Below are positions 3,461 through 27,348 of a stretch of DNA of 64,000 bases, piece by piece. The notes under the pieces were generated by a model. That model had not been told where the DNA came from, did no database searches, and worked only from the letters and a program-made list of their open reading frames with translations. The stretch is from Escherichia coli (GTDB lineage Bacteria; Pseudomonadota; Gammaproteobacteria; Enterobacterales; Enterobacteriaceae): assembly GCF_048403405.1 (NCBI RefSeq), contig NZ_CP183129.1; one strand, given 5' to 3'. Made by a program: the position numbers and the translations under genes. How positions within the stretch are numbered: the stretch's first letter is position 1; each line of letters begins with the position of its first letter.

Positions 3461-3983
3461 AATTGAAGTTCTTGAACCGCTATATTTGGCTCCGGTATTT
3501 ACTCCGTGAGTGGTATCCTAGGGCCCTGTGCGGAGGATTTCATTGTAATGCTCATACGCTGTAGCCAGGTTCATGTTTCTTCAGCAAGGCCATTTGGGCT
3601 AGTGGCCTGCTCCCCATTGCTCCACACAAAAAATTATTCGTTACGTCCGCTCCTGGCACACAGTAGACATCGAGAGACAGCTTCGAGCGATAATCAGAAG
3701 TTCGCAATTGTCATCACCCAAAAGTTGTTTATAACTTGTAGCAAGGTGCATTGTTCAACGTTGAGTTGGTCAAGTTCAGTTAATGATCGGACGATATCTC
3801 ACTCTGCCCAATAGCACATCTGTTTTACGGGAAGTGAGTTTCAACATCACGAGCTTTGTTAGTAAACATCACTTATTTATTAAGAATATGTTTCATAGAA
3901 CAGGGCCGGAGAACTTAATTTCATATTCTAAAAAGTGATGCGCAGACATCACTTTAAACTTTTTAAAGCGCGAAAACCCTACG

Positions 3984-4985
3984 TCAGAATTTGACAGTAG
4001 GAACGGTTGGCCAGATTCTAGCAATAGACTTAAACATAGTCTCCACAATATATTCGAGAACCTCATCATCAGGCTCTTTCATTAATGCTTTTACTTTATT
4101 TATTCTATCCTGAAGTGAAGGGTGAGATTTTGAAAAACCCCAGTTGTTTTTACCTAACATAGTAACGCTGAATAATGCACAGTATATAGAAAGTCTTCTT
4201 TTCCTGCTCACCAACACACGGTCATACATAGACTCTTCACAGTAATTATCTATATGGTCAAGGATGAATTTATTTGCAAACTCATCACATGAGAACTCTT
4301 CATTATGAGCTTGTTCTTGTGTGAATTCATTCATATCATAACTGGTACCTTCCTGCTGATGAATGATATGTCGGACTTCATGCAAAAATGCCCAAGCAGC
4401 AGCAATAATTGCTAATTCAGCTGTTGCTCTTTTAACTGGTTCGATTTTACTGTCAGGCATGGTGCCAGGTTCAGGAATTCCTATTGGTAGTGGTTTTTCA
4501 TCCGGTACCTCATCTTTAGCCGTGTTTTCAAAAGCGCAGATTAACTGTTCAAAGTTTACGAAGTCTGCCGAACTGAAATCAGCAAGTTCTTCCTGTAGCT
4601 CCTCGAGTAAAACATGTAATTCTGACTCGGTTGAGACTAATGATATTTTCTTTGAGTCAAAAAGATCTAAAATAGAATCCCTTTTATCGATAATGTCTTC
4701 AATTTTTTTATTTTGCTCAGTGTTTATTGCTTCGTAGCCCGCCATTGCAGCAAATGTTCCTATCCAGAACGTGCGCAAAACACGATGATTGAAGCGGATA
4801 AATCGATACATCCCCGCATCAAAAATAAATTTACCGTCTGTATGATTATCGCTATGATTTTGGAAGGTCATGTTAAATTTAGACCAGAACTCATCCAGTT
4901 CATTCTGACGCTCTGGAATAGAGGCTAAAAACATTTTTCTTACGCTGTCCTGAACTGTTTTATCTTCATTATGCTCTTCAAACAT
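3984..4985 (-). CDS. Cargo protein with HExxH motif (AWAFLHEVRHIIH), possible zinc metallopeptidase-like protein; acidic N-terminal half
   Basis: ORF 3984..5045; preferred start is ATG at 4985 with GGTGAG upstream (333 aa); alternative TTG at 5045 (353 aa). Convergent with the HNH-like gene; low-GC by eye. Confidence 0.55.
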   Translation of the reverse strand: MFEEHNEDKTVQDSVRKMFLASIPERQNELDEFWSKFNMTFQNHSDNHTDGKFIFDAGMYRFIRFNHRVLRTFWIGTFAAMAGYEAINTEQNKKIEDIIDKRDSILDLFDSKKISLVSTESELHVLLEELQEELADFSSADFVNFEQLICAFENTAKDEVPDEKPLPIGIPEPGTMPDSKIEPVKRATAELAIIAAAWAFLHEVRHIIHQQEGTSYDMNEFTQEQAHNEEFSCDEFANKFILDHIDNYCEESMYDRVLVSRKRRLSIYCALFSVTMLGKNNWGFSKSHPSLQDRINKVKALMKEPDDEVLEYIVETMFKSIARIWPTVPTVKF

Positions 4986-12643: not shown

Positions 12644-13056
12644 GGTTCCCACCCCTCAAAACGCTGACAGCAGGCCGTACGTATCAACCGGAAGAACACC
12701 GATGCCACAAGATAAATCAGCGCGGTAAAAATCCACCCGGCAGCGACCAGCGAGATAAACGTCGCCACCACCACTACCAGAGCCACTGCCCGTCTGCGCC
12801 ACGGCACCGGCTGCAAAAACAGCGACGTGACAATCTTCACGGCCAGCGATTCCGGCGGCAGCTCCCGTCCGTAGCGTTCCAGTACATACTCAGTGGCATA
12901 CATGCCGACACCACCGGCAACCACACAGATAACCGTCGCCAGAATCGCCCAGGTGGCGACAAAACTGACGGCCACGCTCTGCGGGTAAATCAGGGACAGT
13001 GCCAGCATCAGCGCCAGCGACACGTTCAGCATCAGTGAAAGGGATAATTTCTTCAT
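12631..13056 (-). CDS. lysA: LysA (membrane protein of lysis cassette)
   Basis: 141 aa, multiple hydrophobic helices, P2 order. Confidence 0.75.
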   Translation of the reverse strand: MKKLSLSLMLNVSLALMLALSLIYPQSVAVSFVATWAILATVICVVAGGVGMYATEYVLERYGRELPPESLAVKIVTSLFLQPVPWRRRAVALVVVVATFISLVAAGWIFTALIYLVASVFFRLIRTACCQRFEGWEPCQG

Positions 13057-13070
13057 GGTGTTTACTCCGT

Positions 13071-13568
13071 TTAAGCCGGTACGCCGCCAGCGGTACGCCA
13101 GACGGTGACCAGTTTTTCCAGTGAATGCTCACGCTGACCGTAACCGGCACCCGGCAGGGACGCCCAGATATTGCGACAGCGTGAAATGGCGCGTTCAATG
13201 CGTCCCGCCCGGATGTCATCCAGTGCACCGCGTTCGCGGATCAACTGAATGGCGAGTCTGTCCTGTGACAACGGACTGAAATCCGGCAGGGCAAGCTGTT
13301 TGCGGTAATGCGGCCAGAACAGGTAAAGCTGCTGATAGCGACCGGAGGCCGTTGATTTTTCACCGCGACGGTTAAACACCTTCGCCGGTCGGCCATGTGC
13401 GAACGGGTGGTCACTGTAGTCGGTGAAAATTTCCGGCTTTCCGTCCAGTCCGGTGACTATCACGTCATAGCCCCGGTTTTTCGTCAGCGGATGATTCGCC
13501 GTCCCTTCGGACACGGCCAGCATGTCGAGAAAGGCGGCGATATTCTGATGCGTGTTAATTACCGGCAT
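13071..13568 (-). CDS. K: Endolysin gpK
   Basis: 165 aa, P2 order. Confidence 0.85.
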   Translation of the reverse strand: MPVINTHQNIAAFLDMLAVSEGTANHPLTKNRGYDVIVTGLDGKPEIFTDYSDHPFAHGRPAKVFNRRGEKSTASGRYQQLYLFWPHYRKQLALPDFSPLSQDRLAIQLIRERGALDDIRAGRIERAISRCRNIWASLPGAGYGQREHSLEKLVTVWRTAGGVPA

Positions 13569-13849
13569 TACGGTTTCCCCCTGCCCTTAAAGCGGCGCTG
13601 AATGGCAATCTCAATCACCTGATAACCGGCGATACCCAGCATGGAGCCGATGCCGCACACCGCAGGCAGTGACAGGTCAGGAAACTGCACCAGAACAACA
13701 CCGGCAACCATCGAGACAAAACCACCGAGTAACATGCGCCCGATAAACAGACGCGGGGTGATGGGTTCACCACCGGCAAGCACCTTGCCGACAACAATCA
13801 GCACCCCAATCATGAAAAGCGACAGGACGCTTTTTTCTTCTGCTGTCAT
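13568..13849 (-). CDS. Y: Holin gpY
   Basis: 93 aa, hydrophobic, precedes K. Confidence 0.8.
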   Translation of the reverse strand: MTAEEKSVLSLFMIGVLIVVGKVLAGGEPITPRLFIGRMLLGGFVSMVAGVVLVQFPDLSLPAVCGIGSMLGIAGYQVIEIAIQRRFKGRGKP

Positions 13850-13852
13850 GCG

Positions 13853-14056
13853 TTACTCCCACAGATTGACAGTTTCAGCCACGGGCGCGGTCTGAACGTC
13901 GGGCAGTTCGACGGCGGTGCCGTGCGGCAGCACCGCACCCAGTTCAGCCAGTCCCGGATTTGCGGCGAGCACGGCCTCGACCACGCCCTCAGTGCGCCCG
14001 TAATACCGGACACAGATGGCGTCGAGCGTGTCGCCCTGTAGCGCAAAGGTCTTCAT
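13853..14056 (-). CDS. X: Tail protein gpX
   Basis: ATG at 14056 (MKTFALQGDTLDAICVRYYG...), 67 aa. Confidence 0.8.
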   Translation of the reverse strand: MKTFALQGDTLDAICVRYYGRTEGVVEAVLAANPGLAELGAVLPHGTAVELPDVQTAPVAETVNLWE

Positions 14057-14565
14057 CAGATTTGACTCACAATGCAGCGCGGCTTGTCCTGGATTCGCGC
14101 CACTGCCCAGCGCATATCCCGCCACAGCTCATCAATGGTGCTGTCAATGCTGTCGGCCTTCTTGTCGCCTTTGGCACTGGCATCCACGCCGCGATAACGC
14201 TCATAAAGCGACGCGGTCGCCATCGCACACACGGCGCGCTCGTAGTAAAAAACTTTGATGCTTTCACCGTCGATGTCGTCCGCCGGGACTTCCGCCAGAC
14301 ACGTAAAACCGGCGGCAATTTTCTGTTCGCGGTACTCGTACAGCTCCGCATTCGTCTCCGCCATGCCTGACTTGATGGCCTCACGCAGACGGGCGGGGGC
14401 GACGGTCTGCTCAAGGCGCATACGTTCCCGGACGCGCTTCGGGTCGATATCGGGAAAAAAGAACGTGTTTTTAATCACCGGCTCGTCGCCTGCCGGTTGC
14501 GGGATGACCACCGTACCCTCACCGGACACGGGAGCCTCCTTTCGCGGAATAATCAGCGTCATCAT
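14056..14565 (-). CDS. L: Head completion protein gpL
   Basis: ATG at 14565 (MMTLIIPRKEAP...), GAGG upstream; ~169 aa; ATGA overlap with X. Confidence 0.85.
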   Translation of the reverse strand: MMTLIIPRKEAPVSGEGTVVIPQPAGDEPVIKNTFFFPDIDPKRVRERMRLEQTVAPARLREAIKSGMAETNAELYEYREQKIAAGFTCLAEVPADDIDGESIKVFYYERAVCAMATASLYERYRGVDASAKGDKKADSIDSTIDELWRDMRWAVARIQDKPRCIVSQI

Positions 14566-14664
14566 GACTACCTCTGAAAAGTCGGGCGGTGGACGCCGGT
14601 GCAGTGTCAGGTGATTCACCCTCACTGACCGGCGTGCCGCCCTGGCGCGGGGCGCATTCGGTTG

Positions 14665-15408
14665 TTAACTGGCTTTCTTTTTCGGGCGTCCACGTTTTGC
14701 CGGTGTCACGCTCCGGGTCTTACGCGGGGCGCGGGTGGCCGCTTTGGGCTGCGGCTCCGGCTTCGGTTTCAGCTCCCGCTCCAGTCGTTCAATCTCTTTT
14801 TTGACGCCTGCCTGACAGTCGAGCTGTGTCGCACGTTGCAGGTGCGCCAGCGCGCCGGCGGCATCACCAGCGTCACGCAGAAACAGACCGGTGATTTTGT
14901 GCAGCTTTGCGCGCACTTCATCAGGCATGTCAGCCGTGGCGGTCAGTTCAAGGGTGTCCGTCAGCAGGCGGGGATCCACAGACTCACCGGCAGCGTGAGC
15001 GCGCATGGCCGCAAGCGCCACCTCCTCGGTGAACATGTACGGCGGGGTGCGGCGGTGTTTCCCCGGCATGGTCAGACCATACTTCAGGGCATAACGGGCA
15101 ATCTCCAGCGCACCGGCAATATCGCCGGTATCCAGACGCCACAGCATGACCGTCATCAGAATGTCATCCTGTGCACCTTTGCCCTGCTCCAGCACGCCGT
15201 TCACCCACGGCAACCAGAACGGCAGCAGTTCGCGTTTTTTCGCGGCCTTCAGCTCTTTTGAATAAATCGCTTTCAGTGTGCGCTGGTCTGCGGCCAGCTT
15301 GACCAGCATCTGCTCATAGACAGTTGCATGTCGCAGCGGGGCGGCTTCCCGCTGCGCGGTCATCGCTGCCGAGACCCGCATCATGTGGCGCTGTGCGGGA
15401 CTCGTCAT
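14665..15408 (-). CDS. M: Terminase small (endonuclease) subunit gpM
   Basis: 247 aa, P2 order. Confidence 0.9.
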   Translation of the reverse strand: MTSPAQRHMMRVSAAMTAQREAAPLRHATVYEQMLVKLAADQRTLKAIYSKELKAAKKRELLPFWLPWVNGVLEQGKGAQDDILMTVMLWRLDTGDIAGALEIARYALKYGLTMPGKHRRTPPYMFTEEVALAAMRAHAAGESVDPRLLTDTLELTATADMPDEVRAKLHKITGLFLRDAGDAAGALAHLQRATQLDCQAGVKKEIERLERELKPKPEPQPKAATRAPRKTRSVTPAKRGRPKKKAS

Positions 15409-15411
15409 CGG

Positions 15412-16485
15412 TTACGCTCCCGGCTCTGCGGTCGCTTTAGCCGGTGTGGAGAAATCACCGACCTTAATTTTTTCCACCAGACAACCGGCGGCGTAGTCTT
15501 CCACCACGTAATCAATGTTCATTGACTCGTAGTTCTCCACGCGGTCGAGTTTCGGGTTTTCCACAATCACGCGGCGATGGCTGTCATCCATGTAGTAGAT
15601 GGACAGGTTTTCCAGCTTCGTGATGAGCATCGCATCCGCCGGGAAGTACGGGACGCGTACCGCCGGCAGGTTGCCGATGCGTTTCTGGCTGATGATGACG
15701 TCAGCGGCCAGCATCTCGCTGTTGTCCTGCTCCTTGTTAACGATGGGGAAATACTTGTCCGCCAGTAGCTGACGCCCCACAATCACCACAAGGTCAGGGT
15801 CTTCCTGATACCACGGCTCAATCAGGTTGTTGGTCGCATCCATCACCAGTGCATCGAGGCTGGCATAATCACCACCCTTACCCACGCGGATGACCTCAGA
15901 GGTGGTGTGACCTTCCTCGTCAGTAACCTTGCTCATCACGCGCGCCGGGGCTTCATTGCGGTATTTCTGCAGCCAGCCGACCGCCACATCCTGCAGCATC
16001 GGATTGCTGCTGCGGTCAGAGGTTTCGGCACGCTTCACGCCGTTAAAACCGGCCATGATGAAATCAAGGGACTGGCGTTTGATAATGGCGTTACGGATAC
16101 GGAGCTGGAAATCCTGATAACGCGCCCACAGGTCCAGCGTTTTGTAGCGGATATAAAAATCGAAGTTAATCTGGTCGCATTCGTACTTGTTTGACGCCAG
16201 CTTCGAGAAGTCCTTCGGCTGACGCTCGGTGCCACCGGCGGTGTCGGTGGTGCTGGCGATGGAGCCGGTGACACCAATACCAATTTTTTCCCCTTTCATT
16301 TCGCTGACCGGCACAATGTTGATGCGGGTCAGAAAATCAGAGGACTCCTGCATGGTGTTCATCAGGATCTGGGTGACCGACGGTTCAACGGTGAATTTTT
16401 TCGACACATCACCGGCGTCGATGCCGTTCAGTTCGGCAACACGGGACAGGTAGGCATTAAATTTAAAGCGGGTTTCCTGGCGCAT
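15412..16485 (-). CDS. N: Major capsid protein gpN
   Basis: 357 aa, P2 order. Confidence 0.9.
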   Translation of the reverse strand: MRQETRFKFNAYLSRVAELNGIDAGDVSKKFTVEPSVTQILMNTMQESSDFLTRINIVPVSEMKGEKIGIGVTGSIASTTDTAGGTERQPKDFSKLASNKYECDQINFDFYIRYKTLDLWARYQDFQLRIRNAIIKRQSLDFIMAGFNGVKRAETSDRSSNPMLQDVAVGWLQKYRNEAPARVMSKVTDEEGHTTSEVIRVGKGGDYASLDALVMDATNNLIEPWYQEDPDLVVIVGRQLLADKYFPIVNKEQDNSEMLAADVIISQKRIGNLPAVRVPYFPADAMLITKLENLSIYYMDDSHRRVIVENPKLDRVENYESMNIDYVVEDYAAGCLVEKIKVGDFSTPAKATAEPGA

Positions 16486-16543
16486 AGTTTTTCCTGAAAT
16501 TAAGGGTTAATCGTGAAGGTTTTCCCGGACTGACTGACGCCGG

Positions 16544-17398
16544 TCAGCAGTTCGTCATCAGGGCGTCACCGCCACCGCCGGTGGCCTTGCTGCGGCGCTG
16601 CTGGGTCAGACTTTCGGTGTGGTCGAGGCTGTTTTTCAGGCGGGTGAATGCCTGGCTGGTTTCATCCGCCCTGTCAGTCACCTCCTGCTTAAGTGCGGAA
16701 AAGGCGGTTTCCATCTCAGCGAGGCGCTGCTCAGTGGCGCTCAGTTTTTCCTGCACATGTTCAGCAACAGCGGTCACCGCTTCATGCACGTCATTCAGAC
16801 GGGCGTCATCGCTGGCCTGTTTGCGGCCAAAAATGGATTTCACCTTTTCGGTCAGGGCGGTGAACACGGTTTCAGGCAGGTCTTCAAATTCCAGCTCAAC
16901 AGGCGTTGCCACTGAAATCAGGTTTTCAGGGCTTAATTTGAAGCGGTTCAGGGGGTTGTGTTTTGCCGTGCGGCAGAATTCCAGGTATTCCGTGCCGAGG
17001 CTTGCCGGGTCATCGGTGACGGCCAGACCCACCAGATAACATTTGCCGGTATTGGCAAAGTTCGGCTGAATTTCCATTGAGGTATAGACCTTCTGCGCGG
17101 CCTTGTTCATCGCGATAAGGTCATCGGTCGGGGTGATTTTCGCAAACAGCGCCCATTTGCCTTTCAGCGCCGAATCATCGTCAATCTTTTCGGCCTTCAG
17201 TTCGACCACATCGCCATAACGCTTAAAAATGCCGTCAGGCAGGATGCCGCGCAGATGTTCCAGGTTAATGCGGCAACCATAGACTCGCGGGTCAAAGGTT
17301 TCGGCCATTTCCTGAATATCCTGCGCACTGATGACACGCCCGTCACAGGTGTCACCCTCAACGCCGATACGAAAGAATTTTGAGACTTTTTTTGCCAT
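16544..17398 (-). CDS. O: Capsid scaffolding protein gpO
   Basis: ATG at 17398 (MAKKVSKFFRIGVEG...), ~284 aa. Confidence 0.9.
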   Translation of the reverse strand: MAKKVSKFFRIGVEGDTCDGRVISAQDIQEMAETFDPRVYGCRINLEHLRGILPDGIFKRYGDVVELKAEKIDDDSALKGKWALFAKITPTDDLIAMNKAAQKVYTSMEIQPNFANTGKCYLVGLAVTDDPASLGTEYLEFCRTAKHNPLNRFKLSPENLISVATPVELEFEDLPETVFTALTEKVKSIFGRKQASDDARLNDVHEAVTAVAEHVQEKLSATEQRLAEMETAFSALKQEVTDRADETSQAFTRLKNSLDHTESLTQQRRSKATGGGGDALMTNC

Positions 17399-17571
17399 TG
17401 TCAGGAGTCCTGAATAGTGATTAGAGGAGTCACATGTCGGCATCAGTTTCCCGACGATGCGCATCCTCCGCCATCAGTCCCGGATGGCTTATCACTGACA
17501 CAACAGCACCTTAGCGAATCGCAGGGCGCGACTCAGTAGCCTTGCCGTGTATTCATCACGGCGAGGTATTC
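17399..17571. promoter_or_regulatory. Divergent O/P intergenic region, expected site of the Ogr-dependent late promoters
   Basis: Position only (divergent late operons as in P2); partial dyad TGTCGG...CCGACG seen, but no confident TGT-N12-ACA match. Confidence 0.35.
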
Positions 17572-19344
17572 ATGACCATCACCACAGACACCACTCTTTT
17601 ACACGACCCGCGTCGTCAGGCGGCGCTGCTGTACTGGCAGGGGTTTTCCGTGCCGCAGATTGCCGCCATGTTGCAGATGAAACGCCCGACGGTGCAGAGC
17701 TGGAAACAGCGCGACGGCTGGGACAGCGTTGCCCCCATCAGCCGTGTCGAAATGAGTCTGGAAGCGCGGCTGACCCAGCTCATCATCAAACCGCAGAAAA
17801 CCGGCGGTGACTTCAAGGAAATTGACCTGCTGGGACGCCAGATTGAACGACTGGCACGGGTCAACCGCTACAGCCAGACCGGCAACGAGGCAGACCTTAA
17901 TCCGAACGTCGCTAACCGCAACAAAGGCGGGCGGCGCAAACCGAAAAAGAATTTTTTCAGTGACGAGGCCATCGAAAAGCTGGAGCAGATTTTCTTTGAG
18001 CAGTCTTTCGAATATCAGTTGCACTGGTATCGCGCCGGGCTTGAGCACCGCATCCGCGATATCCTGAAATCCCGCCAGATTGGCGCGACGTTTTATTTTT
18101 CCCGCGAGGCGCTGCTGCGCGCCCTGAAAACCGGTCATAACCAGATTTTTCTGTCGGCCAGTAAAACGCAGGCGTATGTGTTCCGCGAATACATCATCGC
18201 CTTTGCCCGTCTGGTTGACGTTGACCTGACCGGTGACCCGATTGTCCTGGGCAATAACGGCGCAAAACTGATTTTTCTCGGCACCAACTCCAACACCGCG
18301 CAGAGCCATAACGGCGACCTGTACGTCGACGAGATTTTCTGGATCCCGAATTTTCAGGTACTGCGTAAGGTGGCATCAGGTATGGCCTCACAGAGTCACC
18401 TGCGCTCGACCTATTTCTCCACCCCGTCCACGCTGGCACACGACGCCTACCCGTTCTGGTCGGGTGAACTGTTCAACCGGGGACGCGCCAGCGCCGCCGA
18501 ACGCGTGGAAATCGACGTCAGTCATAACGCCCTTGCCGGTGGGCTTCTCTGTGCGGACGGCCAGTGGCGACAGATTGTCACCATTGAGGACGCCCTGAAA
18601 GGCGGCTGCACGCTGTTCGACATTGAGCAGCTCAAACGCGAAAACAGCGCCGACGATTTTAAAAACCTGTTCATGTGTGAATTTGTTGACGACAAGGCGT
18701 CGGTGTTCCCGTTTGAGGAGCTGCAACGCTGCATGGTCGACACGCTGGAAGAATGGGAAGACTATGCGCCGTTTGCCGCAAATCCGTTCGGCTCCCGACC
18801 GGTATGGATTGGTTACGACCCGTCACACCGTGGCGACAGCGCAGGATGCGTGGTACTGGCACCGCCGGTGGTGGCCGGTGGCAAATTCAGGATCCTTGAG
18901 CGTCACCAGTGGAAAGGCATGGACTTTGCCACTCAGGCTGAATCCATCCGCAAACTCACCGAAAAATACAACGTCGAATACATCGGTATTGATGCCACCG
19001 GCCTCGGTGTCGGCGTGTTCCAGCTCGTGCGCTCGTTCTATCCCGCCGCGCGCGACATCCGCTACACGCCGGAAATGAAAACCGCAATGGTGCTCAAGGC
19101 AAAAGACGTCATCCGCCGTGGCTGTCTGGAATATGACGTCAGCGCCACCGACATCACCAGCTCGTTTATGGCTATCCGCAAGACCATGACCAGCAGCGGA
19201 CGCAGCGCCACCTATGAGGCCAGCCGCAGCGAGGAAGCCAGCCACGCCGACCTCGCCTGGGCGACCATGCACGCCCTGTTAAATGAGCCACTCACCGCCG
19301 GTATCAGCACCCCGCTGACATCCACCATTCTGGAGTTTTACTGA
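17572..19344 (+). CDS. P: Terminase large (ATPase) subunit gpP
   Basis: ATG at 17572 (MTITTDTTLL...), ~590 aa. Confidence 0.9.
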   Translation: MTITTDTTLLHDPRRQAALLYWQGFSVPQIAAMLQMKRPTVQSWKQRDGWDSVAPISRVEMSLEARLTQLIIKPQKTGGDFKEIDLLGRQIERLARVNRYSQTGNEADLNPNVANRNKGGRRKPKKNFFSDEAIEKLEQIFFEQSFEYQLHWYRAGLEHRIRDILKSRQIGATFYFSREALLRALKTGHNQIFLSASKTQAYVFREYIIAFARLVDVDLTGDPIVLGNNGAKLIFLGTNSNTAQSHNGDLYVDEIFWIPNFQVLRKVASGMASQSHLRSTYFSTPSTLAHDAYPFWSGELFNRGRASAAERVEIDVSHNALAGGLLCADGQWRQIVTIEDALKGGCTLFDIEQLKRENSADDFKNLFMCEFVDDKASVFPFEELQRCMVDTLEEWEDYAPFAANPFGSRPVWIGYDPSHRGDSAGCVVLAPPVVAGGKFRILERHQWKGMDFATQAESIRKLTEKYNVEYIGIDATGLGVGVFQLVRSFYPAARDIRYTPEMKTAMVLKAKDVIRRGCLEYDVSATDITSSFMAIRKTMTSSGRSATYEASRSEEASHADLAWATMHALLNEPLTAGISTPLTSTILEFY

Positions 19345-20363
19345 TGAGCAAGAAAAAAGGGAAAACACCGCAACCTGCGGCAAAAAAAATGACCGCCAGC
19401 GCCCCGAAAATGGAGGCATTCACCTTTGGCGAGCCGGTGCCGGTACTCGACCGCCGTGACATTCTGGATTACGTCGAGTGCATCAGTAACGGCAGATGGT
19501 ATGAGCCGCCGGTCAGCTTTACCGGTCTGGCGAAAAGCCTGCGTGCTGCCGTGCATCACAGCTCGCCGATTTACGTCAAACGCAATATTCTGGCCTCGAC
19601 ATTTATCCCGCATCCGTGGCTTTCCCAGCAGGATTTCAGCCGCTTTGTGCTGGATTTTCTGGTGTTCGGTAATGCGTTTCTGGAAAAGCGTTACAGCACC
19701 ACCGGTAAGGTCATCAGACTGGAAACCTCACCGGCAAAATATACCCGCCGTGGCGTGGAGGAGGATGTTTACTGGTGGGTGCCGTCCTTCAACGAGCCGA
19801 CAGCCTTCGCGCCCGGCTCCGTGTTTCACCTGCTGGAGCCGGATATCAATCAGGAGCTGTACGGCCTGCCGGAATATCTCAGCGCCCTTAACTCTGCCTG
19901 GCTGAATGAGTCGGCCACGCTGTTCCGCCGCAAGTATTACGAAAACGGCGCTCATGCCGGATACATCATGTATGTCACCGATGCCGTGCAGGATCGCAAC
20001 GATATCGAAATGCTTCGCGAAAACATGGTGAAGTCGAAAGGCCGCAACAACTTTAAAAACCTGTTTCTCTATGCCCCACAGGGGAAAGCCGACGGCATTA
20101 AAATTATCCCCCTCAGTGAAGTGGCGACGAAGGACGATTTTTTTAATATCAAAAAAGTCAGCGCCGCAGATCTCCTGGACGCACACCGCATCCCCTTTCA
20201 GTTGATGGGCGGTAAGCCGGAGAATGTCGGGTCACTAGGAGATATTGAAAAAGTGGCAAAGGTCTTTGTCCGCAATGAACTCACTCCATTACAGGAGAGA
20301 ATAAAGTCAATAAATGAATGGTTAGATATGGAAGTCATAAAATCCCTTGATTATAACTTATAA
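19344..20363 (+). CDS. Q: Portal protein gpQ
   Basis: 339 aa, ATGA overlap with P stop; last ~100 bp look AT-rich. Confidence 0.9.
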   Translation: MSKKKGKTPQPAAKKMTASAPKMEAFTFGEPVPVLDRRDILDYVECISNGRWYEPPVSFTGLAKSLRAAVHHSSPIYVKRNILASTFIPHPWLSQQDFSRFVLDFLVFGNAFLEKRYSTTGKVIRLETSPAKYTRRGVEEDVYWWVPSFNEPTAFAPGSVFHLLEPDINQELYGLPEYLSALNSAWLNESATLFRRKYYENGAHAGYIMYVTDAVQDRNDIEMLRENMVKSKGRNNFKNLFLYAPQGKADGIKIIPLSEVATKDDFFNIKKVSAADLLDAHRIPFQLMGGKPENVGSLGDIEKVAKVFVRNELTPLQERIKSINEWLDMEVIKSLDYNL

Positions 20364-20375
20364 GTAAATATATAA

Positions 20376-20402
20376 AGTTGGCGGAATGCAATCCCGCCAA
20401 CT
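20376..20402. terminator. Hairpin AGTTGGCGG-AATGCAATC-CCGCCAACT between convergent Q and cargo operon; likely bidirectional terminator
   Basis: 9-bp perfect stem read from the sequence in the 42-bp gap between the stop codons. Confidence 0.6.
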
Positions 20403-20405
20403 TAA

Positions 20406-21113
20406 CTATATATACTTCCTTTTTACTCTACTTAATTCTATCACTGATGAGGAGTGACAAAATGACAAATTAATAGTATCGATATAATCCAAAATTTGAC
20501 TCTCAACCTCAATAAAAATATTTTTGGGCCCATTACTAATCGATATACCGATTTCATCCAAAACAGCCATCATTTTTCTCTGATGAGTTTTATATTTATA
20601 GTCTTTATTTTCCTCTGTAATATGTGCATTGGCTTCCTCAATAACACATTTGATTCTAGATATTATTTCTAGATAATCTCTCGAAACAGATATATCACCG
20701 CCTTGCGCTTCAGGGAACATAACCCTATACCATCTAAAAAAATTAACTTTCTCTGGATAGATGCTACTTCTTTTAGTTAACTCAGCACTTGCAAATTCTC
20801 TAAACATCGTCAGATGACTAGTGTAATTACTATTATTATTATTTTTAACTCCAGCGTTATATGTCATCAAAGCAATCATAACACCAAAAACGGTAACAAA
20901 AGTTGTTATAAGCCATCCAAACGCCTGAAAATACATTACTATACCAGATGTTTTTTCCGCAAAAAATTTTAAGCACTGGCTATCGAAGCATATATCACGC
21001 TCATATAGCTTTTCATTCTGAATAGTTTCAAAAAGAGAAATTAGCGAAAAAATCAAAAAAAGAGCTGACGACACACCGACAATATATTTGAGAAGTCTAA
21101 TATTTGCATTCAT
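20406..21113 (-). CDS. Cargo protein with two N-terminal transmembrane helices, translationally coupled to the upstream reverse transcriptase; candidate effector
   Basis: ATG at 21113 overlaps RT stop (ATGA); 235 aa; hydrophobic segments IVGVSSALFLIFSLISLF and GIVMYFQAFGWLITTFVTVFGVMIALMTY; AT-rich by eye. Confidence 0.65.
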   Translation of the reverse strand: MNANIRLLKYIVGVSSALFLIFSLISLFETIQNEKLYERDICFDSQCLKFFAEKTSGIVMYFQAFGWLITTFVTVFGVMIALMTYNAGVKNNNNSNYTSHLTMFREFASAELTKRSSIYPEKVNFFRWYRVMFPEAQGGDISVSRDYLEIISRIKCVIEEANAHITEENKDYKYKTHQRKMMAVLDEIGISISNGPKNIFIEVESQILDYIDTINLSFCHSSSVIELSRVKRKYI

Positions 21114-22336
21114 AATGGTTTTAAAGATGCCAATCTAGATTTAAAACACTCCAGTTTTTCTTTAAATGATTCAGAGCGAGTAAGAATAATCATCTTATAT
21201 CTCGTCAAATCATATTTTCTTTTATACCAATGTTTATTTTGATTACCTTTCGAATACGACAACTCTAAACTTTTTATAGCTGCATCAATCACAGCAACAT
21301 CTCTTTTAGATGGCATCGGTTTTATTGCCTGCAACTGTTTCTTGAATGATTCATATTTTTCATGCCCAACACGGCCAAGCTTATTCACTCTCCCCATACA
21401 TCTATTGAATTCTTTTCTGTATGCAACACTTGTTTTTGTGTTATTTTTTGCCGCCAGTAATTTCAAATTATGTATAGATGCCCTGATTCTTTTGACTTCA
21501 TCGGATGGTAGTCGAGGTGAGTCATAGTCAACTCTTAAACCATGTACTTTTATAGGTTCAGATGAACAGTGAAATATTTTTGTTTTGTGCTTATTTATCG
21601 GCAAGTCATGCTCAGAAAGCATCCTCTCTATATGGCTTTGCATTTGAGAAAAATCATAATTACTTATTTTAGATGACACGGTAATATCATCTACCAAACG
21701 CGTATAAACAAGTCCTTTCCTCTGCGCACGTCTTACCACATCCCCTTCAACAGCGAATAAACACAAAGTTGCTATATAGCTTGATGTTAAGGCCCCCTGT
21801 ACGACAAAATCATCCTTAGTACATATATCCACCAAGTATTCAAGAGCCTCATCCTTAATATGCAATATCTCCTCAAACACGCTCCTAACCAGATCTCTAT
21901 GGATATTATCGAAAAAATTACTTATATCCACCTTGAGAACTGTTTTTGCTCCACAATGAGCCTTTGCACATGAAACATAGTCACGTTTGACATTAGAATT
22001 TAAAACATCATTTTTACTGGGAACTGAACCAAACAAAAATGAAGGAAAAACAACCAATTCCTTAAAAATACGTTTATTAATTCTACTCTGTAATAATCTC
22101 ATTTTAGGATGTAGGGAGTAGACAATCCGTTTGCTTCCGTCAATTTTGGGAATTTCTTTTAGAGTATATTTCTCATCTAATGATAATTCTGCAATAGCTT
22201 TAAGCTCTTCAACAGAAATCGATAAAGCCTTTGACAACTTTTCAAGTGTTGTGATAGGAGCATTGGATTTGCTGTATGGTTTAAATTTATCCATAAACAT
22301 ACCATTCAAATTCAAAGTTACGTACGGTCTTCCCAT
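21110..22336 (-). CDS. Reverse transcriptase (retron-like or Abi-type), defence-associated candidate
   Basis: RT motifs in the translation: IPKIDGSKRIVY (fingers), VLKVDISNFFDNI (motif A), QGALTSSYIA (motif B-like), YTRLVDDITVSS (YxDD; DNA ~21671-21706), and KVHGLRVDYD resembling the retron VTG region. Start uncertain: ATG candidates at 22336, 22300, 22294; the supplied ORF extends to a TTG at 22384. Confidence 0.8.
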   Translation of the reverse strand: MGRPYVTLNLNGMFMDKFKPYSKSNAPITTLEKLSKALSISVEELKAIAELSLDEKYTLKEIPKIDGSKRIVYSLHPKMRLLQSRINKRIFKELVVFPSFLFGSVPSKNDVLNSNVKRDYVSCAKAHCGAKTVLKVDISNFFDNIHRDLVRSVFEEILHIKDEALEYLVDICTKDDFVVQGALTSSYIATLCLFAVEGDVVRRAQRKGLVYTRLVDDITVSSKISNYDFSQMQSHIERMLSEHDLPINKHKTKIFHCSSEPIKVHGLRVDYDSPRLPSDEVKRIRASIHNLKLLAAKNNTKTSVAYRKEFNRCMGRVNKLGRVGHEKYESFKKQLQAIKPMPSKRDVAVIDAAIKSLELSYSKGNQNKHWYKRKYDLTRYKMIILTRSESFKEKLECFKSRLASLKPL

Positions 22337-22625
22337 ACTCAAGGGTGGAACAGCAGAGATGCTTACATCAACAATTGTCAGCAACAGCCTCTGCTATCTT
22401 TCGACCGTACGTAATGTCGTCGGCTACGGCACCATCGTAGTTGACGACGGTGGGGCCTCGCTGATAGGTCCATAGTGGACGCTTTTTTGTAAAAGCAAAA
22501 ACTGACAATTTAATGTTGTTGACTGCCGCATACCAAGCGAATCGCTGGTGCGCTAAGAATAATGCAACAAAAAAATAAGAATTTCAACCGGGTAACTGCA
22601 AGCCAGCGACATCGTTTAGCGCGCA

Positions 22626-22644
22626 GTGCTTTCCCCGCCTCGCC
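22626..22644 (-). other. cos: cos cohesive-end site (19 nt, GGCGAGGCGGGGAAAGCAC on the minus strand)
   Basis: Exact match to the P2 cohesive-end sequence as remembered; embedded in a locally GC-rich noncoding stretch between the RT gene and the 612-aa gene. Confidence 0.75.
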
Positions 22645-22805
22645 CGCCCGCTTCGTGGGGCGGTTTTAATGCAGGTGCAATACCGCTTTTGAGCCACGCC
22701 CGTCCTGGCGGACGCACGGCCGGAACATGCAACTCCGGCACATGCAAAACCATGCACATATTGCACGCAGAAAGATAAATGCCAAAATACCTAAATCAAC
22801 TTCCA

Positions 22806-24644
22806 TTAATCAGCCAGATAAGGTTCAACTTTATCTTCCCATACACTAAATAAAGGCAAACAAGTTAAATAAAAGATAAAGACACAGGCAAAAACTGAAG
22901 TTGGTTGATAACAATGATTTACAGTATACCTGCCATGAGCCATCGTGTGTCTAATTGCAGCACCACCTTTCATATTGAACAATAAATCCATAGTCAATAC
23001 ATGATCACTATCAAAAACACCTTCCATTTCACTCCTATAATTTGCAAGCATTTGAGATAGGCTAGTAGCCTCCTCAAAAAGCGACACATCTATTTTCGTT
23101 GTTTCTTTTCTTCTTAATTCTAAAATCCATCTAATTGAATTCTCCAATTGCGGCAATAACAAATAACAGGCAGACACATAATCTCCCTGCCAAAGCTTAT
23201 AAAACCCCAAAGAAAATATTTCTGCATACCCAGGTGGAACAAATGCACTTTGTTGTGAGATTGGGTCAAATGTATTTTCATTTAATGAATACCTAGCCAA
23301 CACACTTTGCCTAACGACTTCAAACTCACCACAAACATAGACCTGATGCTCAATGTTACTAGTTCTTAAATAATTTGCACAAGCATCATTTAAACTTATA
23401 TCCCCCGCAGGATCCAAAGGTGAACGACTTGCTACAACGCGCCCTCTATCATCATAAACAACCGTTTCACTCATATTAAGAAAAAAATGTTTTTTAGCAT
23501 CGGAACGAGCTCTTTCCATAATTTCACTGGCACTTACAATCTTAAATCTAGCAATTAAAGTTTTAATTACCCTTGAGAAATCCAATTGATTATAAACATG
23601 CTCTTTCTGAGCGATAACATCACTAAGATCCATTGGTATTGCAAAGAAGTGCATTTCATCATTGATTTGATCTCGAATAGAATTCAATTCCTCTCTAATC
23701 TTTTTAATTTCTTCATTCATTCCACCAATTGCTCTAAATTCGCCAAGAGCAACTCTTAACCAATGAGCCTTCAATATTGAAGATGAAGACTGTTCAAATT
23801 GAGCCAATGTTATTTCTGACGCTTTAATTCTGCACCGTCTTCCTTGCTCTTCCATATCGTTTTTAACATATAATTCAGACGCAAAATAAAACAATTTTTT
23901 CACTGCATCAAAATAAGACGCTCCACAATGCTCATCAGCTATCTTTTCTGCATTCTCAGCCAATTGCAAGGGACACAATAAATTATTCTTATAAAGAATT
24001 TCAGAAACTCTTAATACACCGGTGAATATACCAGAGTCTATTAATACATGATATAACCTTAATGTCGAATCAACTATCCCCCCTTGTAGTTGTTTTTTCC
24101 TGCCAATAAGCATGCGCGATATTGCGATACCTCTATCCAAGCAGTCAACAACATCAAAAATATGGATATCACCTGACTCTTGTTTTTCTATTAAAGTATC
24201 GCAAGCATCATTAACCATTAGAGAATATGACTCTATTGCTTTATTGGCAGAGTCTATATCCTTACGGTTATTTATCCATAAAACATCACACACCCTAGAT
24301 ATAATATAAGGATTATCGGAGTTTTCTTTAATACAAGTTAATATTGTTGAAAAACTCTCCTTATAATCTGAAGGCCTATAGCCCCTCTCAGGATAGAGAA
24401 TGATTTTTGGCTCAAAACCGATAATATCACCAGACCTAGAAAATTTAAAATTAAACAACGCACGTAATAAATAGCAAAGCCGCCAAGAACTTACATCGTT
24501 TTTTAGCTTGTAAGATGACAACAACTGAACAAAATAAGACTCCATATCAAAATGAGAATAACTTCTTGGCGATGATAATATACTGGCGTATTCACTTTTT
24601 TTAAAATCATCAACTGAAATAGAAAAAACATCAAACTCGCTCAT
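22806..24644 (-). CDS. Cargo protein of unknown function (612 aa) with C-terminal HEPN-like R-x4-H motif (AIRHTMAHGRY); candidate abortive-infection RNase
   Basis: ATG at 24644 with GGTGAGGA upstream; no P-loop seen; AT-rich by eye; occupies the P2 tin/old position between A and cos. The HEPN call rests on one short motif. Confidence 0.6.
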   Translation of the reverse strand: MSEFDVFSISVDDFKKSEYASILSSPRSYSHFDMESYFVQLLSSYKLKNDVSSWRLCYLLRALFNFKFSRSGDIIGFEPKIILYPERGYRPSDYKESFSTILTCIKENSDNPYIISRVCDVLWINNRKDIDSANKAIESYSLMVNDACDTLIEKQESGDIHIFDVVDCLDRGIAISRMLIGRKKQLQGGIVDSTLRLYHVLIDSGIFTGVLRVSEILYKNNLLCPLQLAENAEKIADEHCGASYFDAVKKLFYFASELYVKNDMEEQGRRCRIKASEITLAQFEQSSSSILKAHWLRVALGEFRAIGGMNEEIKKIREELNSIRDQINDEMHFFAIPMDLSDVIAQKEHVYNQLDFSRVIKTLIARFKIVSASEIMERARSDAKKHFFLNMSETVVYDDRGRVVASRSPLDPAGDISLNDACANYLRTSNIEHQVYVCGEFEVVRQSVLARYSLNENTFDPISQQSAFVPPGYAEIFSLGFYKLWQGDYVSACYLLLPQLENSIRWILELRRKETTKIDVSLFEEATSLSQMLANYRSEMEGVFDSDHVLTMDLLFNMKGGAAIRHTMAHGRYTVNHCYQPTSVFACVFIFYLTCLPLFSVWEDKVEPYLAD

Positions 24645-24797
24645 TCCTCACCTTTAAAGCACTTAACAAACAATCATGGTAAACAATACCAAACTGCAAG
24701 CAACGATTAAATACAGAAAACTCTTTCTGTCGAGATTTTTCAATAACACTAAATATATACAGTACGAAATTATCTAATATTGCGTGAATTTTTGCCA

Positions 24798-27083
24798 TTA
24801 TGTCCACTCCATTACTGTTGAGAATCCCGGCCACTCATCAATGACCGGATACGTGAATTTTTTCCCGCCATAATTTATGGTCGCTCCCCGAGCCAGCGCC
24901 TCAAGCTCCCATCGCTGTGGCCTGATACCGTTCTGAGCAAGGTCAACGCGGATACGGGTAATTTGCATTCGTTCCGACCGGGTCAGTCTGGCCGATGGCG
25001 CTATTTCATGCGGTTTTAACGGGCTTCCGTTTCTTTGCTGACGGTTTGGTCTTCTCAGACCGTGTTTTAATGCACCTCTGAGCGCCCTCACGACCTCCTG
25101 GTCATTCCATTCGATAACACCGTCATCTACCAGATTAAGCACTGCTACGGCGTGTTCAGAAGGCGTGGGAGCCGGTGACGAAGTATCACCACCGGTGAGC
25201 TTTCCACAGTTATTGACAGGACTCCGAGGCGCGGCGATGCCGCTTTTTAAAGTCAACGGCTCAACGACCGGAACTTTCGGCACAATGCGCCAGTCCGTCG
25301 TTCTGGTGATATGAATATGACGCGTGCCGAGATGCGGCGCGTAAATGCCGACCACTCTCTCGACTTCTTCCTCGTACTCGTTAACGTCATCCGACGGGCT
25401 ACGGGCGACCCTGACAGTCTGACAATCGCGCGGGACATTTGCCCCGCCCTGCGCGCTGATATACAACGCAAAATCACCACTGTCTGCGGCGGCGCGTGCA
25501 GCCTCGACGCGTTCGTCAAACTCATCAGCAATGCTGACGCCGCGAGGCAATTTGCGTAGTTCACGGTAAGCCCCCATTGTCGGCAGGCCAACCGTTTTAA
25601 ATTGCGGGATACGCCACGTTGACGCCCATGCGGTAACAGCCGCTGCAGTGTCTTTCAGCGGCCTGCCGGTATCGTTATCGAGCTGACCATCCAGTGCATA
25701 GCCGTCGATATTTTTTGAGATGTATTTCGCGATATATCCCGCAGCACCGCCCCGGTTAAGGTGTTTCGCCTGAAAACGGTTTCGCGCGGCTCCTCTTTCG
25801 TCGCCATCCTCTTTGAGCGCATAGCGACGCATGATTTCGATAATCTGGTTACGCTGGCGTGGATTACAAAAAAGCATCATATGCCAGTGCGGCGTTCCGT
25901 CGTGGTGTGGCTCGACGACTCGCAAACCGTAGACCTGTAAATCATTATCCTTGAATGCCGTGCGCATCAGGCTCCAGATACGGCAGAGATAACGCTGCGC
26001 ATCCTTCGGATTAAATGCCTCATCATTCCAGCCGTGATTAAGCTGCACGGTTTTACTTTCTCCTTTTCCGACCTGACGTGTCGGGTGATACTTTGACGGC
26101 GCGGTCAGCGTGATAAACATCCCCACATCACCCTCTGCGGCGGCGTAACGCTCAATACCGGCGATGGTGTTCATCAGCTCCATCCGGCGAATTTCAGGAT
26201 TAGAAATACTGCCCATCACCTTACTGATAAGGTCGATGCGCTCGCCGGTTTCCCTGTTTTCGAGGTCACACGATTTAAGAAATTCCAGATTTGCCTGGCG
26301 GCGTGCACGCACATCACGAATGGCGTGTTTACTGGCATAAGGAGAACGATCTTTATTGACCTCCCCGACAGCAATCAGTAACGCCTCATGCCAGCGCATA
26401 CGCTGGCCTTTAAGCTGATGAGTCCACCACTCATCGTTAAACAGGCGGGCAATGGCAGAATATGCCTGCCTCGTGGTCATCTGTCCTTTACGGTATTTTT
26501 TCCAGTAGAGCGGGGAAATATTGAAAGCACGTGCAGCGCCAGCAACATGACTATACAGGTGAGCCTGCGCCTCATCCGTAAACAGCGATTCTTTTTCGCC
26601 ATGCGCATCCACCCAGGCATCGCTGAGTTCCTCATACATCATGAAAAGCTGCGATGAGATACGGGCGGCAAACTTTTTCAGCTCCTTGTCATTCATTCCA
26701 GGCAGGCGCGCATAGTGGTCACGCTCTGCCAGAAACAGCAACGACGCGTCGGTGTTCATTTCATGGCGCTGATTCACGCGCTCAATGCGCGGCCATAAAC
26801 GACGCTGAAAAGTGGATGTGAGGAAATAAAACCCGTGTACCGGGCTTTTATTGCGCCGGATGTAGTCATAGCGTGAAGTAAACAGCGAGCGCAAAAAGTA
26901 AGGCAGGCGGTTAATCGTGGATAAAACCCCTTGCACCTGACGCATCTCGTCACGTGTAAGGGGTCTTTCGCGCCCGACGGCCTCGCGTGGCGCGTTCCAT
27001 GCATAAGCACCGGTAAACGTCTTACCGGTGCCTGCGGCAAATGCTGACGGAGGGACAAAACGCCCGGAGGCTTTAACGGCCAT
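24798..27083 (-). CDS. A: Replication initiation protein gpA (rolling-circle nickase)
   Basis: ATG at 27083 (MAVKASGRFVPPSAFAAGTGK...), 761 aa; the supplied ORF extends to an upstream TTG. Confidence 0.9.
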   Translation of the reverse strand: MAVKASGRFVPPSAFAAGTGKTFTGAYAWNAPREAVGRERPLTRDEMRQVQGVLSTINRLPYFLRSLFTSRYDYIRRNKSPVHGFYFLTSTFQRRLWPRIERVNQRHEMNTDASLLFLAERDHYARLPGMNDKELKKFAARISSQLFMMYEELSDAWVDAHGEKESLFTDEAQAHLYSHVAGAARAFNISPLYWKKYRKGQMTTRQAYSAIARLFNDEWWTHQLKGQRMRWHEALLIAVGEVNKDRSPYASKHAIRDVRARRQANLEFLKSCDLENRETGERIDLISKVMGSISNPEIRRMELMNTIAGIERYAAAEGDVGMFITLTAPSKYHPTRQVGKGESKTVQLNHGWNDEAFNPKDAQRYLCRIWSLMRTAFKDNDLQVYGLRVVEPHHDGTPHWHMMLFCNPRQRNQIIEIMRRYALKEDGDERGAARNRFQAKHLNRGGAAGYIAKYISKNIDGYALDGQLDNDTGRPLKDTAAAVTAWASTWRIPQFKTVGLPTMGAYRELRKLPRGVSIADEFDERVEAARAAADSGDFALYISAQGGANVPRDCQTVRVARSPSDDVNEYEEEVERVVGIYAPHLGTRHIHITRTTDWRIVPKVPVVEPLTLKSGIAAPRSPVNNCGKLTGGDTSSPAPTPSEHAVAVLNLVDDGVIEWNDQEVVRALRGALKHGLRRPNRQQRNGSPLKPHEIAPSARLTRSERMQITRIRVDLAQNGIRPQRWELEALARGATINYGGKKFTYPVIDEWPGFSTVMEWT

Positions 27084-27348
27084 ATGAGCCAAAAGCCTCT
27101 GAACAACGCTTGCTGAGTTGCTCAACCTGCGCGTTTAAATCAGCAAAAGACTTTGCGCTTCCGGTCAGAATATCGTGATGCATCAGGCCGGAAACGAGCT
27201 GGCTTAATTTCGGGTAATAACCAACCACCGCCAGCCATTCCTGACCGGCGTTTTTACCGCTTTCCGCTCTCTTTTTCTCGTGGAGAATAAACTGAAAGCT
27301 GTCACTGGTAACGACATAACGTTCGCCAATTTCAATACGAATGCTCAT
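27073..27348 (-). CDS. Small early protein at the P2 orf83 position
   Basis: 91 aa, position only. Confidence 0.5.
   Translation of the reverse strand: MSIRIEIGERYVVTSDSFQFILHEKKRAESGKNAGQEWLAVVGYYPKLSQLVSGLMHHDILTGSAKSFADLNAQVEQLSKRCSEAFGSYGR

Follow-up and report, generated by a model that had tools for sequence, protein, structure and literature searches.

HEPN nucleases typically act as dimers that join two Rx4H motifs and usually target tRNA or mRNA, and a polar residue after the arginine is typical of active HEPN motifs. The DUF4209/C6orf70 proteins were recognized as catalytically active HEPN proteins with bacterial TPR fusions and operons related to restriction-modification (R-M) (Anantharaman et al., 2013; PMC3710099). 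HEC-08 (bioRxiv 10.1101/2024.01.29.577857) and DS-11 are single-protein HEPN systems, each of which loses defense when the Rx4-6H or catalytic residues are mutated. The PDC systems are candidates that were compiled from genes situated inside the loci of BREX, DISARM and type I R-M systems (bioRxiv 10.1101/2024.01.29.577857). The A-Q hotspot of P2 houses known anti-phage genes, and old and tin of P2 are experimentally confirmed exclusion genes (Rousset 2022; PMC9122126), which bears out the description of the locus studied here as an anti-phage hotspot.

The window, which is the whole 64,000-nucleotide stretch of DNA that was analyzed, contains at 22806..24644 on the minus strand an open reading frame (ORF) of 612 codons with an ATG start and a stop codon at 22806-22808. 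The features of the gene described below all are on this strand. A Shine-Dalgarno sequence, GGTGAGGA, is located at 24645-24652 immediately 5′ of the ATG, and a ribosome binding site is marked at the same place in the GenBank record of an identical gene. The ORF has a GC content of 0.344, below that of the whole window (0.501) and of gene A (0.537). Thus, the large AT-rich ORF with a strong Shine-Dalgarno sequence in the preliminary description agrees with the present analysis in coordinates, start codon, length and composition. The ORF (P2-EC46 ORF612; WP_001288417) is flanked by gene A (24798..27125) on one side and by the P2/P4 cos core GGCGAGGCGGGGAAAGCAC (22626-22644) on the other, which is the tin/old position, as also was noted previously, and is cargo of a P2-like prophage. 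In common with old and tin, the gene is AT-rich and shares the strand of gene A, but there is no sequence relationship with either: a Walker A scan was negative, which accords with the lack of a P-loop reported from the initial reading, and no OLD/Toprim or Tin match was produced in PADLOC. Comparison with a 91.5%-identical allele yielded a dN/dS of 0.23, with the lowest value (0.19) in the C-terminal domain. The ORF therefore is a real coding gene under purifying selection.

The preliminary description could not assign the protein to a named family. That statement no longer holds: Pfam and PADLOC place it as DUF7380 plus a divergent DUF4209 and as PDC-S39, respectively. Both PDC-S39 HMMs matched the full length of the protein (residues 8-600; E-values 2e-68 and 1e-67), and PDC-S39 was the sole PADLOC model matched by each of the three parts of the protein. 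PDC-S39, from the guilt-by-embedding set of Payne et al., also is a single gene and shows no structural difference from the 612-aa protein, but as it is itself only a candidate this membership says nothing on function. The protein is 100% identical to cluster P0001, a ‘DUF7380 domain-containing protein’, and 99.7% identical to ORF612 of phage P2-EC46 (AM157366). The same protein is system #55 (“DUF4209”) in Table S5B of Rousset 2022 (PMC9122126), and the exact protein is classed as a ‘Predicted novel defense gene’ with a mean log-odds of 8.85 in Table S5 of DefensePredictor; it is absent from the three smaller Tables S6-S8, which were taken to hold the tested systems (PMC13092281). Three public resources hence already carry the protein as a putative HEPN or defense candidate, so that the gene is a good experimental target instead of a discovery, and the original observation was correct but not new. 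Literature searches located no paper that mentions DUF7380, and nothing was found that combines ‘ERMARD’ with ‘HEPN’. The family of the protein comprises 5,870 clusters at 50% identity in Proteobacteria and beyond.

The protein is organized in an N-terminal domain, a helical-repeat region followed by a connector, and a C-terminal HEPN-fold domain. The N-terminal DUF7380 domain (residues 8-184; 24093..24623) consists of helices and one β-hairpin in the AF2 secondary structure and matched Pfam PF24098 with an E-value of 3.5e-24 over model positions 5-173 of 177. Residues Arg-87, Asp-93, Arg-117, Asp-120, Trp-123, Ala-136, and Tyr-140 are conserved in the family of the protein, and Arg-171 is invariant. 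Foldseek searches of AFDB50 recovered family members only and revealed no differently annotated fold for this domain, which we propose may act as a sensor or regulatory module. TPR/α-SNAP-like helical repeats (residues ~147-330; 23655..24206) overlap the end of DUF7380 and are followed by a connector of helices and a conserved β-hairpin (residues 341-470; 23235..23624), as judged by AF2 secondary structure and conservation. Within the hairpin, Gly-401 is ~99% conserved and the adjacent Arg-402 is invariant in a 12-sequence alignment. The C-terminal domain (residues 471-612; 22809..23234) is all-α and has the four-helix up-and-down bundle of the HEPN superfamily. Its own match to the DUF4209 profile PF13910 is sub-threshold (E-value 0.22, residues 500-587) and the protein thus represents a divergent DUF4209 branch. 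The profile was matched by 44 of 48 homologous C-terminal fragments and by 8 of 12 close homologs (E ≤ 0.001), and homology of the 612-aa protein to proteins that match PF13910 is unambiguous, with profile E-values down to 1e-295. The protein is best described as a combination of DUF7380 and a divergent DUF4209 domain of the C6orf70/ERMARD HEPN type. Searches of the PDB with the single sequence gave only chance bromodomain matches (E-value about 1), whereas the full-length profile gave weak TPR matches only and the C-terminal profile none. Even at an E-value of 10, no NCBIfam model was matched by the whole protein or by one of the three parts taken singly.

The sequence AIRHTMAHGRY, correctly noted previously near to the C-terminus, spans residues 563-573 (22926-22958) and includes the Rx4H motif R565-H-T-M-A-H570 at 22935-22952, approximately 10 nt from the interval 22925-22945 given initially. 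The view that this R-x4-H constitutes a HEPN signature requires qualification. Shuffled versions of the 612-aa protein contained a mean of 0.72 R-x4-H motifs, and as 52% of shuffles harbored at least one, the motif in a single sequence is uninformative; a second copy in the protein, R572-H577, is unconserved. Instead, it is conservation across the family that makes the Arg-565/His-570 pair meaningful. In an alignment of the 161 best-scoring homologs, which otherwise are 16-30% identical, Arg-565 is ~99% conserved and His-570 and Gly-571 are 100% conserved, such that the motif is the most conserved feature of the family. Arg-565 and His-570 are the predicted catalytic residues. The family consensus is LRNxxAHG, with His in place of Asn after the arginine in the protein studied here. 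In the AF2 secondary structure the motif forms a short helix or loop right before the long terminal helix, as expected for HEPN proteins. The E501-N-S-I-R505 segment (23130..23144) belongs to a second conserved HEPN helix, P498-Q499-x-E501-x3-R505, in which Glu-501 is 100%, Pro-498 and Arg-505 are ~99%, and Gln-499 is ~96% conserved in the same alignment. The polar cluster of Glu-501 and Arg-505 possibly provides active-site or substrate-binding partners.

Homologs with 91%, 52%, 35%, and 32% identity occupy the slot right after gpA in other P2-like prophages and phages. Two DUF4209 types occur 76 and 193 times among 18,150 P2 hotspots (Rousset 2022; PMC9122126). Beyond phages, homologs also are widespread and are carried by conjugative and integrative elements. 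Distant members adjoin Kiwa and IS110; Abi_alpha and SocA; RES; AbiH on a conjugative element; and SLATT_5. There was no conserved partner gene across nine contexts, which supports the behavior of the gene as a single-gene module, as had been supposed.

We consider it somewhat probable, and plausible if unproven, that the 612-aa protein is a single-gene, sensor-coupled HEPN RNase for defense. The stand-alone, three-part protein with DUF7380, TPR/SNAP-like repeats, and a DUF4209-type HEPN domain would be produced in an inactive form in the lysogen. A phage-derived or infection-induced cue might then be bound by the half of the protein that comprises DUF7380 and the helical repeats, thereby freeing or pairing the HEPN domains. 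The paired domains would cleave RNA without metal, translation would halt, and the superinfecting phage would be blocked, possibly with killing of the infected cell. We infer RNase activity, dimerization, the N-terminal sensor role, and the anti-phage phenotype. ApeA, AbiJ/AbiD/AbiF with their C-terminal HEPN domains, HEC-08, DS-11, and DS-38 share with the 612-aa protein a single polypeptide in which a non-catalytic N-terminal module precedes HEPN, as well as carriage on mobile elements, but the N-terminal module differs in being DUF7380 with TPR-like repeats. The PADLOC models of these systems were not matched even at an E-value of 10, and the best HHblits link reported by DefensePredictor is to the AbiJ C-terminal domain with 63% probability and 19% coverage (PMC13092281). 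The gene also differs from HepT/MntA (HEPN-MNT) and Csm6 as there is no MNT antitoxin gene, CARF domain, or CRISPR context, and the protein is four to five times the size of HepT. The gene is flanked by gene A and cos, with a leader that carries a non-conserved small ORF on the gene A side, and not by an MNT nucleotidyltransferase antitoxin gene.

Against a role in defense, a 33%-identical paralog of E. coli S88 (pFR103, ‘Putative HEPN’) from the same hotspot was assessed under its native promoter with eight coliphages and is present only in Table S2B (‘additional tested systems’) and is missing from the validated set (Rousset 2022). This result would suit an active HEPN RNase that is not an anti-phage device, but instead is a prophage ‘moron’ working as a stress- or addiction-type toxin, with growth arrest and prophage retention, or, in the P2 subfamily, a membrane-associated RNA-decay factor. 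The intact motif within a HEPN fold is also compatible with such an enzyme, and the hotspot also holds non-defense cargo that includes partition systems and cytolethal distending toxin (PMC9122126). The membrane variant follows the role in RNA degradation at the ER membrane predicted for C6orf70 (Anantharaman et al., 2013; PMC3710099), and concerns the very hydrophobic final helix of the P2-borne subfamily (residues 583-601, SVFACVFIFYLTCLPLFSV; 22842..22898). The 19-residue Kyte-Doolittle maximum of this helix is 2.17, compared to 1.0-1.4 in distant members, in which the helix includes arginine, and only the P2-borne subfamily attains a score like that of a membrane segment. However, SVFACVFIFYLTCLPLFSV is the core helix after the Rx4H motif, is homologous to the arginine-containing, non-membrane helix of most family members, and is packed in the bundle in the AF2 model. 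An addiction toxin also is at odds with the absence of a conserved antitoxin-like partner; the sole small ORF upstream evolves like non-coding DNA, and the defense-gene-rich neighborhoods elsewhere in the family favor immunity. Overall an RNase with no defensive role is unlikely.

The position of the gene might instead indicate a function in the competition or life cycle of the phage itself, with expression from the early operon during P2 lytic growth or induction and degradation of RNA of the host or of competitors such as P4-like satellites and other P2-like phages. The AC1 system of the hotspot shows that systems located there can act on P2 relatives (PMC9122126). The leader from the gene A stop codon to the ATG (24645..24797) is 153 nt in length and AT-rich (GC 0.31), and aside from GGTGAGGA a promoter scan identified only weak σ70-like sites and no convincing promoter. 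A consensus scan detected no terminator-like site between the gene A stop codon and the ORF, and the gene could be transcribed by read-through from the early operon. Nevertheless, an early-operon role makes no sense for the homologs outside phages because these are on conjugative and integrative elements, including beside Kiwa. AT-rich cargo and rapid locus swapping are typical of lysogen-expressed P2 accessory genes such as old and tin, and the composition and swapping of the 612-aa gene fit this pattern. A role in phage competition accordingly is rather improbable. Less credible again is that the HEPN domain is a non-catalytic module that binds RNA, nucleotide or protein in a scaffold or regulator, as in MtlR or the sacsin HEPN domain. 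In HEPN families of this kind the Rx4-6H dyad usually is lost (Anantharaman et al., 2013; PMC3710099), whereas the arginine, histidine, and following glycine, together with Glu-501 and Arg-505, are invariant or nearly so across homologs.

Validation of the favored reading as a defensive, sensor-coupled RNase would add the family to the named anti-phage systems, within the familiar class that couples a sensor to a HEPN RNase. The P2 slot holds four or more divergent alleles and so is suitable for experiments on trigger specificity. A broader and more tentative proposal, which we regard as possible but doubtful, is that DUF7380-TPR-DUF4209 proteins are widespread single-protein immune sensors in which a phage component switches on an ERMARD-type HEPN RNase, with the final helix directing the P2 branch to the membrane. 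The HEPN domain of the family to which the 612-aa protein belongs and that of eukaryotic ERMARD/C6orf70 fall in the same Pfam family (PF13910). They have in common a C-terminal domain with an LRNxxAHG-type Rx4H motif, and TPR-like repeats lie upstream as in bacterial members; the eukaryotic protein differs in its N-terminal context and proposed ER-membrane role, and the likeness is drawn via the Pfam family. If the broader proposal were true, a prophage gene would give a first biochemical function to the family of human ERMARD (C6orf70), for which the literature search found no paper that tests the predicted RNase role, and another eukaryotic protein family would be rooted in bacterial immunity.

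The leader is crossed by a 55-codon ORF (24633..24797) that overlaps the 612-aa ORF by 12 nt. Compared to the 91% allele, this ORF showed six nonsynonymous to one synonymous codon changes, loss of the stop codon, and a 42-nt deletion, and the region therefore probably is a leader and not a gene. That this 55-aa ORF (PHROG 37811) and the 612-aa ORF form a two-gene system was rejected, as the small ORF is missing at the loci of divergent homologs. Downstream, a weak terminator-like hairpin (22751..22767) was predicted by consensus scan ~40 nt past the stop codon. An Rfam search of positions 20000-25200 returned zero matches, including for the expected ncRNA of the neighboring retron. A functional tie to this retron was rejected because an identical or 91%-identical gene is found without a retron at loci L003 and L004; both arrangements, with and without the retron, are recorded in Table S5A of Rousset 2022 (PMC9122126).

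The 612-aa open reading frame (22806..24644, minus strand) begins with an ATG preceded immediately by GGTGAGGA (24645-24652), and its GC content of 0.344 makes it an AT-rich island compared to gene A (0.537; 24798..27125 in the GC comparison) and the window (0.501). These features bear out the AT-rich frame with a strong Shine-Dalgarno sequence noted in the preliminary description. The P2/P4 cos core GGCGAGGCGGGGAAAGCAC is located at 22626-22644; the same string is printed in P4 cos-proximal sequences (Rousset et al., Table S2; PMC9122126). With this core on one side and gene A upstream, the 612-aa gene fills the A-to-cos slot where P2 has tin and old, as proposed. No Walker A motif was found in the protein, in agreement with the reported absence of a P-loop, and the peptide AIRHTMAHGRY was indeed present near the C-terminus at residues 563-573 (22926-22958), with R565 to H570 encoded by 22935-22952.

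The earlier view that the protein fits no named family did not hold. A Pfam profile search named DUF7380 at residues 8-184 (E 3.5e-24), and both PADLOC models for PDC-S39 matched full length (residues 8-600; E 2e-68 and 1e-67). An NCBIfam search with the protein gave no match, PHROGs returned an 'unknown function' family of the same length, and with the threshold relaxed to E 10 no PADLOC family besides PDC-S39 matched any of the three protein parts. When 1.84 billion representative proteins were searched with a profile, 5,870 clusters were recovered at E<=0.001 and 2,073 at E<=1e-30; among the best 150 of the 5,870, nearly all measured 590-660 aa and aligned over their whole length. Close homologues possess both PF24098 (DUF7380) and PF13910 (DUF4209, now labelled EMARD_N). 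PF13910 matched C-terminal fragments alone from 44 of 48 members, but the window protein only at a sub-threshold E of 0.22 (residues 500-587), which suggests a divergent DUF4209 branch whose relationship is clear through transitive homology. DUF4209, with human C6orf70 (ERMARD) as prototype, was classed as a HEPN family by Anantharaman et al. (2013) and predicted to be catalytically active, its bacterial members being TPR-fused and in operons related to restriction-modification (PMC3710099). Judged by profile matches, the window protein is a member of DUF7380 and of PDC-S39. It is a divergent member of an already described family.

The R-x4-H motif had been interpreted as a HEPN signature. As a lone motif it does not support this reading: shuffles of the 612-aa sequence contained a mean of 0.72 R-x4-H motifs, with at least one in 52%, and a single occurrence in one sequence of this length is no evidence by itself. 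It is conservation across the family that gives the motif meaning. Residues R171, E501, H570 and G571 were invariant, and R565, R505 and P498 were ~99% conserved, in alignments of the 161 and 150 best-scoring homologues, mostly 16-30% identical to the query. As R565, H570 and G571 are retained in such divergent homologues, the motif is a family signature with the consensus LRNxxAHG. A second R-x4-H (R572-Y-T-V-N-H577; 22926-22937, residues 570-573 onward) directly follows the first but lacks conservation among family members, which again shows how little the bare motif says.

The AlphaFold2 model built from the 150-sequence alignment is confident (pLDDT 95.8, pTM 0.87) and all-alpha apart from two small hairpins. 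The Rx4H motif in this model occupies a short helix immediately ahead of the long terminal helix, a predicted placement that fits the position expected of a HEPN motif. Foldseek against AFDB50 matched DUF7380/DUF4209 proteins full length (TM 0.8-0.97) from Salmonella (100% identical), Enterobacter, Pseudomonas, Azotobacter, Dickeya, Brucella, Rhizobium, Brevundimonas, Sphingobium and a Chloroflexota candidate. On fold and motif, the protein is a member of the HEPN superfamily. The helix after Rx4H (22842-22898, residues 583-601; Kyte-Doolittle 2.17) scores as transmembrane-like only in the P2-borne subfamily, and its counterpart in distant members bears arginines. Eukaryotic C6orf70/ERMARD is described with one transmembrane segment (PMC3710099).

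ORF612 of P2-EC46 (E. coli ECOR46; AM157366) and the window protein are 99.7% identical. Among 5,426 complete E. coli genomes, 20 carry the gene, in each case on the chromosome, with nucleotide identity of at least 99% in 14 and ~91% in six. Against the 91% allele, dN/dS was 0.23 overall and 0.19 in the HEPN domain. A Salmonella protein (AFDB A0A5W5KM11) is 100% identical and one from Citrobacter portucalensis (cluster P0003) 77% identical. Thus, the cassette moves between enterobacterial genera, presumably carried by P2-like phages. In other P2-like elements, the slot was occupied by divergent homologues: 52% identical in loci L005 and L006, 35% in L007, and 32.5% in phage vB_EcoM-569R9, where it is annotated DUF4209. 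Locus L005 also carries a GmrSD_N-domain gene within the tail-gene region (15992-17628), and in L007 the interval from the homologue to Q contains DUF2971, Peptidase_C39_2-like and DUF4019 genes (12714-15328); this cargo may mark additional defence or accessory slots.

Distant members (~20% identity) have surroundings typical of mobile elements or defence loci. They adjoin KwaA/KwaB and an IS110 transposase, an RES-domain gene, SLATT_5, or AbiH in a conjugative element; one shares an integrase-rich element with Abi_alpha and SocA, and another lies within an integrative element. No neighbour was conserved across the contexts examined, and the protein therefore looks like the single-gene module originally proposed. 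In the window, a type IV (Ec48-like) retron lies beyond cos, between cos and portal gene Q (20406-22590, minus strand). It comprises a reverse transcriptase (21110..22384, minus strand; PADLOC RT_IV, E 1e-176) and a 2TM effector (20406..21113, minus strand; NCBIfam retron_Ec48_2TM equivalog, 226.7 bits versus a cut-off of 65). The msr/msd RNA should lie in the ~200 nt upstream of the reverse transcriptase (22385-22590), where an Rfam scan for it gave no match. In the two contexts examined, the gene directly follows gpA in a P2-like prophage without this post-cos retron, and arrangements both with and without the retron were tabulated previously (Rousset et al., Table S5A; PMC9122126). The gene and the retron thus are independent modules, and the 612-aa protein was rejected as a retron effector.

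A 55-codon frame (24633-24797, minus strand; PHROG 37811) starts at a TAATG overlap with the gene A stop and overlaps the 612-aa frame by 12 nt. Compared to the 91% allele it displays six nonsynonymous codon changes to one synonymous, a lost stop and a 42-nt in-frame deletion, and it was absent beside divergent homologues. These features argue against a gene; the stretch probably is untranslated leader.

That the protein occurs at this locus has been published before. Rousset et al. (2022) described the gpA-gpQ region as a hotspot (18,150 loci, 169 curated systems), in which system #55, 'DUF4209', is the exact window protein (76 occurrences) and system #13 a 33%-identical type (193 occurrences; Table S5B; PMC9122126). 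In the literature search, strain inventories were the sole place where PDC-S39 came up, and there by name alone; Payne et al. describe their 145 PDC systems as candidates, found inside BREX, DISARM and type I restriction-modification loci (bioRxiv 10.1101/2024.01.29.577857). DefensePredictor lists WP_001288417.1 as 'Predicted novel defense gene' (mean log-odds 8.85; Table S5); this and two other E. coli DUF4209 proteins are absent from its three smaller tables (S6-S8), which presumably list the tested systems (PMC13092281).

The observations fit a predicted sensor-coupled HEPN effector, a reading based on the HEPN fold with its intact invariant dyad and E501/R505, the large front half of helical repeats and DUF7380 with invariant R117, D120, W123, Y140 and R171, the lack of a partner gene, and the hotspot and defence-island locations. 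The front half would keep the HEPN domain inactive until an infection cue is bound by that half; the HEPN domains then would pair and cleave RNA, and translation would stop. We infer every step beyond a HEPN fold with a conserved motif. HEC-08 (bioRxiv 10.1101/2024.01.29.577857) and DS-11 are precedents for motif-dependent defence by a single HEPN protein. The protein belongs neither to Old/Tin, whose P2 slot it occupies, nor to HepT/MntA. Among known defence proteins, the top HHblits link given by DefensePredictor is to the AbiJ C-terminal domain, at only 63% probability and 19% coverage (PMC13092281).

Other findings count against this proposal. The sole tested paralogue, the system #13 type from E. 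coli S88 (pFR103, 'Putative HEPN'; cloned together with the native promoter), was challenged with eight coliphages and appears in Table S2B ('additional tested systems') and not in Table S2A ('validated') (PMC9122126). Moreover, a sequence scan between gene A and the ATG found no terminator, and the promoter-like sites there were all weak. Less likely rival readings are that the protein is a toxin outside defence or acts in RNA decay at the membrane, that it contributes to the phage life cycle or to competition, or that it is a non-catalytic scaffold. The assignment is of value for experiments and for its connection to the ERMARD proteins.

In four independent complete E. coli chromosome records (H9, H10, H11 and H14) the gene is at exactly 2440-4278. 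As the preceding 2,439 nt are accounted for by a gene A of 2,286 nt and the 153-nt leader, these records begin at the gene A start codon, which looks as though genome-rotation software had treated the replication gene of the prophage as the start gene of the chromosome. A further record, H22, has the gene at 2398-4236, which fits the allele with the 42-nt leader deletion.
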